DNA of 8,722 nt from a virus (lineage: Duplodnaviria > Heunggongvirae > Uroviricota > Caudoviricetes). Both the position numbers and the translations under genes were made by a program. Below, in pieces: positions 2,661-3,139 of this stretch. Under the pieces are notes generated by a model. The model had not been told where the DNA came from. It ran no database searches and saw only the letters and a program-made list of their open reading frames with translations. The DNA is taken from the IMG/VR virus record IMGVR_UViG_2526164674_000023; one strand, 5' to 3'. The first letter of the stretch is position 1; every line of letters starts with the position of its first letter.

Positions 2661-2948
2661 TCAGATAGAGAAGGGAAATTGTCGCCGAGAATGTGTCACG
2701 CTTACAATCTCAATGCTTGAAGCAGCTACTCTGTACAGGATTATGTAGTTAGGGTGGGTCACGATCTCTCTCAATCCAGAAACCCGTTCGCTTGGTGGAT
2801 ATAAGTACGGATGCTCAGATAGAGGTAATACCGATGTTTCAATGCGTATTTTTAGTCTACGTGCTGCCGGTGGGTTCTCCTTGGCGATGTAAGTTATGAT
2901 CTGGCGCAAATCATCGCGAGCAGACGGTAGCCATAAAATGGGTAACAT
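2661..2948 (-). CDS. type II toxin, RelE/ParE superfamily (95 aa)
   Basis: Translation MLPILWLPSARDDLRQIITYIAKENPPAARRLKIRIETSVLPLSEHPYLYPPSERVSGLREIVTHPNYIILYRVAASSIEIVSVTHSRRQFP matches the ParE/RelE pattern (W..A..DL..I..YIA..NP.AA ... GLRE ... Y.I.YRV....IEI..V.H.RR). Its start codon overlaps the stop of the upstream small ORF (TAATG), the classic antitoxin-toxin arrangement. Confidence 0.8.
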   Translation of the reverse strand: MLPILWLPSARDDLRQIITYIAKENPPAARRLKIRIETSVLPLSEHPYLYPPSERVSGLREIVTHPNYIILYRVAASSIEIVSVTHSRRQFPFSI

Positions 2949-3139
2949 TACTCGCTCTTGTTAGTTACAGCAATTTGAGCAATAAGATTTTCCATTTCAG
3001 CCATTACCTCGTCATGTGGAATTGCGGGGCGAGTGTCTGCAAGGCTTGACGTTACTTTAGTGCGCAACCATTCGTTGTAACTGTTTTCTTGTTCGGTAGT
3101 TTCGAATTCTGAAACTATCGGAGAAAGGGCTGTACCCAT
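2948..3139 (-). CDS. putative antitoxin of the ParE-like toxin (63 aa; ParD / addiction-module-antidote-like)
   Basis: Small acidic protein MGTALSPIVSEFETTEQENSYNEWLRTKVTSSLADTRPAIPHDEVMAEMENLIAQIAVTNKSE encoded immediately upstream of and translationally coupled to the toxin. SD GAGGAG 5 nt before the ATG at 3139. The ...IPHDEVMAEM... C-terminal motif resembles ParD-class antitoxins. Exact family not confirmed. Confidence 0.6.
   Translation of the reverse strand: MGTALSPIVSEFETTEQENSYNEWLRTKVTSSLADTRPAIPHDEVMAEMENLIAQIAVTNKSE

Follow-up and report, generated by a model that had tools for sequence, protein, structure and literature searches.

A paaR1-paaA1-parE1 toxin-antitoxin system, probably acting by addiction, in the immunity region of the O157:H7 prophage CP-933M/Sp4

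[quoted passage not shown] The locus is already known, since two paaR-paaA-parE systems have been published and this is the second one (Jurenas 2021, PMC8630535). The gene that an earlier note on this DNA had called simply the repressor is PaaR, the third component of the published system, a point missed there. As that note had stated, the pair is co-oriented with the repressor, all three ORFs being found on the minus strand:

3167-3568, minus strand: paaR1, coding for a 133-aa CI/DicA-like helix-turn-helix (HTH) repressor; ECs_1069 of strain Sakai, annotated as 'phage repressor protein'.
2948-3139, minus strand: paaA1, coding for a 63-aa acidic antitoxin of the PaaA family; Sakai ECs_1068, with matches in Pfam, NCBIfam and PDB.
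2661-2948, minus strand: parE1, coding for a 95-aa basic toxin of the ParE family; Sakai ECs_1067, with matches in Pfam, PDB and RefSeq.

Three of the features that define PaaR-PaaA-ParE systems are found together in the window, namely a ParE toxin, a PaaA antitoxin without a DNA-binding domain and an HTH regulator upstream on the same strand. Many E. coli O157:H7 chromosomes contain positions 2400-3700 with 100% identity; in Sakai, the three genes, ECs_1067 (named 'plasmid stabilization system protein') with ECs_1068 and ECs_1069, form part of the element annotated as 'prophage Sp4, lambda-like phage', adjoining yccA, and Sp4 of Sakai is the counterpart of CP-933M (PMC2884950). Each O157:H7 genome contains this TA type in exactly two copies. 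The second copy corresponds to the PaaA2 and ParE2 sequences deposited in PDB, which are 27-33% different from those of the window, and it is of the PaaR2 type of CP-933P, a type that E. coli ATCC 25922 and phage Evi carry as well; its regulator starts with MQKKE, the N-terminus determined for PaaR2 by protein sequencing (PMC8630535). The literature also describes a homologue of paaR2-paaA2-parE2 on CP-933M. Thus, the match to Sp4/CP-933M, the PaaR2 type of the second copy and the homologue described on CP-933M together indicate that the window holds paaR1-paaA1-parE1, being identical with the CP-933M/Sp4 copy of O157:H7 and distinct from the CP-933P one; no observation speaks against this identification.

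The identification in itself adds nothing new, and the paralogue has crystal and NMR structures and a mapped regulatory circuit. The paaR1-paaA1-parE1 genes were reportedly described by Hallez in 2010. The value of the result is mainly one of calibration, because a TA pair placed in a lambdoid immunity region, in the cargo slot that corresponds to rexAB, had been correctly recognised from raw sequence. Concerning the activity of the two systems, both toxins are reported to be toxic and to be neutralised by the cognate antitoxin only, as PaaA1 does not neutralise ParE2, nor PaaA2 ParE1 (review PMC4803016, citing Hallez 2010).

The 95-aa ORF had been singled out for a RelE/ParE-fold signature, which profile and structure searches bear out: ParE1 covers positions 1-89 of the 89 of the Pfam ParE_toxin profile (PF05016; 63.5 bits, cut-off 23, 2.9e-17) and is 67% identical (62/92) to the solved ParE2 (PDB 5cw7/5cze, chain 5cw7_B; E=3e-36). 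The protein is basic, with a pI of 9.86, and in RefSeq it is labelled as a RelE/ParE family toxin. It is very unlikely that the toxin acts as a ribosome-dependent mRNA interferase like RelE, instead of a ParE-type poison of DNA or topoisomerase. Such an activity would fit the borderline match to the NCBIfam RelE/StbE profile TIGR02385 (28.4 bits, cut-off 27.9), the name 'RelB family antitoxin' given by NCBI to the 63-aa partner and the report that ParE2, a member of the same clade, does not bind GyrA59 or inhibit gyrase (PMC10886550), the activity of gyrase-poisoning ParE toxins of the RK2 type; however, the match to ParE_toxin is much stronger and the nearest solved structure has been deposited as ParE. 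Moreover, ParE2 is known from the literature to induce the SOS response and to colocalise with the nucleoid. These two properties indicate a target related to DNA and argue against the RelE-type activity.

The family of the antitoxin, which the earlier note had considered as not securely identified, is PaaA: the 63-aa product matches Pfam PaaA2 (PF21217) with 68.3 bits (cut-off 27; 5.6e-19) and NCBIfam NF050103 with 92 bits (cut-off 50; 1.6e-26), and it is 73% identical (38/52) to the solved PaaA2 (PDB 3zbe/5cw7; E=1.4e-20). The profile search that had been proposed for both proteins thus returned ParE_toxin and PaaA2, each far above its gathering score, and the suspected 'unusual combination' of toxin and antitoxin turns out to be the PaaA-ParE pairing, which has already been described. 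The protein is acidic, as had been noticed, with a pI of 4.41 and 11 D+E residues versus 4 K+R. PaaA2 is also its sole Pfam match at E<=0.1, with no ribbon-helix-helix, HTH, AbrB or ParD domain. Indeed, the PaaA (ParE-associated antitoxin) family is characterised by the lack of a DNA-binding domain (PMC8630535, PMC4803016). The pair resembles the classical parDE systems, such as those of plasmid RK2, Caulobacter (ParD1-ParE1) and Vibrio (ParD2-ParE2), for the ParE toxin and for the small acidic antitoxin encoded just upstream, but it differs from them because the antitoxin is PaaA and not ParD, and no ribbon-helix-helix domain is detected. Since PaaA does not have this DNA-binding domain, autoregulation would be delegated to a separate regulator (PMC4803016).

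Both genes of the pair appear to be coding and maintained. The dN/dS of paaA1 versus distant orthologues is 0.1-0.3, while comparison of parE1 with diverged orthologues gives saturated synonymous sites and a dN of only 0.1-0.3; this pattern indicates that both ORFs code for proteins and, together with the PaaA2 match, supports the earlier view of the 63-aa ORF as a gene. A reading of the locus as the decaying remains of a cryptic prophage, passively carried and with no function under selection, is suggested by the defective state of CP-933M/Sp4, whose integrase is frameshifted in strain TR01 and in which IS elements are inserted. It must be regarded as extremely improbable, however, because hundreds of genomes carry the two ORFs intact and without differences, these are under purifying selection versus diverged orthologues and the linkage of the pair to the immunity region is strict: the TA-bearing stretch 2400-3700 is present over at least 80% of its length in 509 of the 510 complete genomes that contain this immunity segment. 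The cognate-specific neutralisation reported for both systems (PMC4803016) also implies an active toxin.

The organisation of the three genes is compact. Between the end of paaR1 and the ATG of paaA1 there are 27 nt (3140-3166), in agreement with the 27-bp gap first reported, and the 63-aa ORF has its own Shine-Dalgarno sequence, as was also stated. The stop codon of paaA1 and the start codon of parE1 share one base, so that the TAATG overlap described for the two ORFs can be read at 2946-2950 (CATTA on the plus strand). The claim that the unit is closed by an intrinsic terminator agrees with a hairpin followed by seven T, which begins 19 nt past the parE1 stop and consists of TCCCTC-TTTC-GAGGGA and TTTTTTT, with a 6-bp stem containing 4 G-C pairs and a 4-nt loop:

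3147-3152, minus strand: Shine-Dalgarno sequence GAGGAG of paaA1, 7 nt before the ATG, by direct reading; it is kept in the orthologous locus L006 (E. coli Z1323CEC0004).
2619-2642, minus strand: intrinsic terminator-like hairpin closing the paaR1-paaA1-parE1 unit, analogue of lambda t_imm.

Locus L006 has the same hairpin and T-run; L005, a locus of PaaR2 type, shows a different hairpin with a T-run at the same place. The consensus scan detected neither a sigma-70-like promoter nor a terminator separating paaR1 from parE1 on the minus strand, and the sequence is therefore consistent with co-transcription of paaR1, paaA1 and parE1 as one unit. A further terminator-like hairpin with a T-run on the plus strand (3205-3222), antisense within the repressor gene, was set aside as probably due to chance, since 2 such sites are found in the region and 1.9 are expected.

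PaaR1 matches Pfam HTH_3 (2.3e-12) and Phage_CI_repr, as well as the NCBIfam DicA subfamily (8.4e-14, residues 11-130), this last below its cut-off. Its identity to PaaR2 is 42% over 98 aa, with the last ~45 aa highly similar, and that to DicA of E. coli K-12 is 28%; a PDB sequence search with the repressor gave only generic HTH domains of the 434-repressor type and no solved PaaR. DNA homology with the PaaR2-type loci starts at this C-terminal part, which raised the idea of a TA-specific domain; the idea was rejected, as this domain is shared by DicA of K-12, whose gene is not followed by a TA pair.

The operon is flanked on both sides by putative operators of the sequence ACAR-N7-YTGT. This 15-bp motif occurs 5 times in the 8.7-kb window, versus ~0.7 expected, with two copies past the terminator and three in the intergenic region between repressor and cro; the repeats of the O_L region are 93-100% identical to those of the O_R region. 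Their confinement to the two flanks of the operon supports the position of the TA pair between the repressor and O_L, as the earlier note had proposed. The regions involved, with the divergent genes of the switch, are:

2565-2614, minus strand: O_L/P_L-like region, with two 15-bp operators (2570-2584 and 2595-2609).
3575-3643, unstranded: O_R region, with operators at 3580-3594, 3605-3619 and 3629-3643, spaced 25 and 24 bp start to start.
3677-3949, plus strand: ydaS-like cro analogue, divergent from paaR1 (Pfam YdaS_toxin, 8e-10; phrog_35 transcriptional repressor, 9e-29).
3933-4358, plus strand: ydaT, analogue of CII (Pfam YdaT_toxin, 1.2e-09; phrog_163 CII-like activator, 4.3e-46).
3926-3943, plus strand: YdaT operator motif O_M, TTGATT-N6-AATCAA, an exact copy with zero mismatches at the ydaS/ydaT junction.

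No sigma-70 site for P_L, P_R or P_RM was reported by the consensus promoter scan; for this reason these promoters have been assigned by eye and by analogy. A leftward -35 box, TTGACA (2595-2590), is placed between the two O_L operators and is followed by a candidate -10, TAGATT (2570-2565); these probably represent P_L, which the scan would have missed because of the 19-nt spacer. The candidate -10 of P_RM, TAAAAT (3580-3575, minus strand), ends 6 nt before the ATG of paaR1, which has no Shine-Dalgarno sequence. The same geometry is found in paaR2, where GATAAT is followed by 6 nt and the ATG and the leaderless start has been mapped experimentally (PMC8630535); by analogy, the paaR1 mRNA is probably leaderless too. 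As for O_M, the motif has been defined in PMC9986795, and in CP-933P the ydaS/ydaT junction is the site of the P_RE analogue.

The closest known relative of the locus is paaR2-paaA2-parE2 of CP-933P/Sp12 in O157:H7 (Sterckx 2016, PDB 5cw7/5cze/5czf/3zbe; PMC8630535), which has the same gene order and orientation and the same position in the immunity region, opposite to ydaS-ydaT and upstream of the P_L analogue. Its toxin is 67%, its antitoxin 70-73% and its YdaT 86-90% identical to those of the window, this last range being found for YdaT of the PaaR2-type loci in general, while the Cro analogue is different (24% identity). The operators differ as well, since the ACAR-N7-YTGT sites of the window are replaced by GTTTAGTAA-type repeats in those reported for CP-933P (PMC8630535), and paaA2 and parE2 are separated by TAAAATG, whereas paaA1 and parE1 overlap.

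The paralogue provides most of the functional information. The genes paaR2, paaA2 and parE2 are co-transcribed; PaaR2 represses the operon and activates it at low dose, and PaaR2 and YdaS compete (literature, including PMC8630535 and PMC4803016), while YdaT is described as activating the P_RE analogue and expression as bistable. The operon causes post-segregational killing dependent on ClpXP/ClpAP and stabilises plasmids (PMC8630535); in the same work, ParE2 activity was not seen in single cells under any expression state. System 1 is probably regulated in the same way and acts like its paralogue, with a different operator specificity; regulatory details could differ, since PaaR1 and PaaR2 are only ~42% identical and their N-terminal DNA-binding regions and operators are not the same. 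Among the functions put forward in the earlier note, prophage or replicon stabilisation is the one that finds experimental support, by analogy with the paralogue (PMC8630535).

On these bases, a mechanism can be proposed. PaaA1 would neutralise ParE1 by direct binding, as suggested by homology to the solved PaaA2-ParE2 complex. Because a PaaA antitoxin has no DNA-binding domain, transcription would be governed by PaaR1, which is also the immunity repressor of the prophage, of CI/DicA type, and would act at the three O_R and the two O_L operators. The genes would be transcribed leftward as a single unit, either from the P_RM-like promoter, with a probably leaderless paaR1 mRNA, or from a P_RE-like promoter activated by YdaT, and transcription would end at the terminator at 2642-2619. 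If the three genes are read as one unit, the TA pair is made whenever the repressor is made. Loss of the operon, with the immunity region or with the whole prophage, would then stop the resupply of PaaA1, predicted to be protease-labile, leaving ParE1 free; the free toxin would kill or arrest the cell, so that the immunity region is stabilised, and addiction is the most likely effect.

The earlier note had compared the position of the pair to the slot occupied by rexAB in lambda, and paaA2-parE2 has already been described as replacing lambda rexA/rexB (PMC9986795). As in cI-rexA-rexB, the co-oriented cargo comes right after the repressor and is followed by a terminator and by O_L/P_L; both also have three O_R operators at a spacing of 24-25 bp and a repressor mRNA that is probably leaderless. 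Conversely, the pair has no sequence or fold relation to RexA/RexB, and the repressor is of DicA type; PaaR2, its paralogue, is reported to be devoid of the CI autocleavage (peptidase) motif (PMC8630535). Homology searches found neither RexA/RexB nor catalogued defence systems: PADLOC assigned no family, while Pfam and PHROGs returned only ParE, PaaA or families of unknown function. The comparison with lambda thus stands as regards the slot, and the likeness to RexAB is one of genomic position only.

This position, between repressor and O_L/P_L, together with the common orientation with the repressor and the lack of any promoter or terminator found in between, could suggest that the pair is chiefly an anti-phage module for abortive infection or superinfection exclusion, expressed like rexAB of lambda from the promoter of the lysogenic state, in which an infecting phage would free ParE1, for instance by shutting off host transcription or by causing the degradation of PaaA1. 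A labile antitoxin is suited to sensing transcription shut-off, a logic that is common to TA-based defence. Nevertheless, a search of the 5027 PADLOC defence models gave no match for either protein, the PADLOC matches of the repressor being to generic HTH; no phage-defence phenotype is reported for either paralogue in the PaaR-PaaA-ParE literature examined, post-segregational killing is the only demonstrated phenotype and sequence relation to RexA or RexB is absent. A chiefly anti-phage function is therefore unlikely, and addiction remains the preferred explanation for the presence of the pair.

The homologous backbone of the Qin prophage of K-12, dicA-ydfABC-dicF-dicB, is useful as an 'empty site' for comparison, because only 166 bp separate dicA from ydfA and no TA pair is found there. 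DNA identity with the window is 97% for ydfA/ydfB and 84% for dicF-dicB, and the likeness of DicA to the window repressor includes the C-terminal domain. In the window, a full-length DicF small RNA is also recognised at 937-988 on the minus strand (Rfam RF00039, 76.9 bits, gathering score 48); it belongs to a leftward operon, upstream of dicB (563-751, minus strand), with the same arrangement as in Qin.

As for distribution, the order repressor, antitoxin, toxin, DUF1391/ydfA ... dicB is kept in four other loci with three repressors (123, 133 and 166 aa). Among 50,697 phage records, a tblastn search detected the toxin in two only, namely phage Evi, which is of PaaR2/ParE2 type, and an unannotated faecal contig, suggesting that the module is mainly carried by resident prophages. 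DNA homology to the PaaR2-type loci begins in the last third of the repressor gene, covers the TA pair and reaches ydfA (3232-2240, ~71%); it returns in ydaT (~88%), while window positions 3233-3921, containing the repressor HTH, the operators and cro, have no DNA homology to these loci (L003, L004 and L005). The conservation of the flanks around an unrelated segment indicates that heteroimmune variants exchanged the specificity module, whereas the TA pair was retained.

A second point of exchange may be located inside the pair. The 5' end of parE1 (window ~2920) was compared with positions 4042-4949 of L006. At the DNA level, identity to E. coli Z1323CEC0004 is 97% for the repressor gene and 95% for the antitoxin gene but only 79% for the toxin gene, with a dS of 1.36 for the toxin gene against 0.05; this drop in identity implies recombination, with a breakpoint close to the junction of the two TA genes. 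The differences in the antitoxin gene are few and mostly non-synonymous (dN/dS about 1, on small counts).

It is rather improbable that the system has a role beyond addiction, either as a Rex-like abortive infection device, set off when an incoming phage interrupts the supply of PaaA1, or as a guard killing the recombinants in which immunity has been replaced by that of a heteroimmune phage. If the guard function were real, the mosaic breakpoints, that is the swap of HTH, operators and cro and the antitoxin/toxin junction, would represent the survivors of such exchanges.

Some other features were observed around the immunity region. On the minus strand, antisense between ydaT and the O-like replication gene, there is an ORF (4565-5056) for an 'ECs1072 family phage-associated protein', which has no match in Pfam, PHROGs or PADLOC and may be another cargo gene. 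On the opposite side of the locus, a small plus-strand ORF (1325-1510), annotated in RefSeq as a hypothetical protein of 61 aa, contains a CPAC...CPEH motif and has no Pfam match; it faces the other way from the leftward early operon and is flanked by the dicF region and by a 129-aa ORF at 1697-2086. The O-like replication protein (4988-6190, plus strand) shows a low-complexity QEQEQEQEKEQEQ linker and its gene is followed by those for a DnaC-like ATPase (6197-6943), a DUF1627 protein and a DUF977 protein, forming a replication module typical of the Rac/Qin type.
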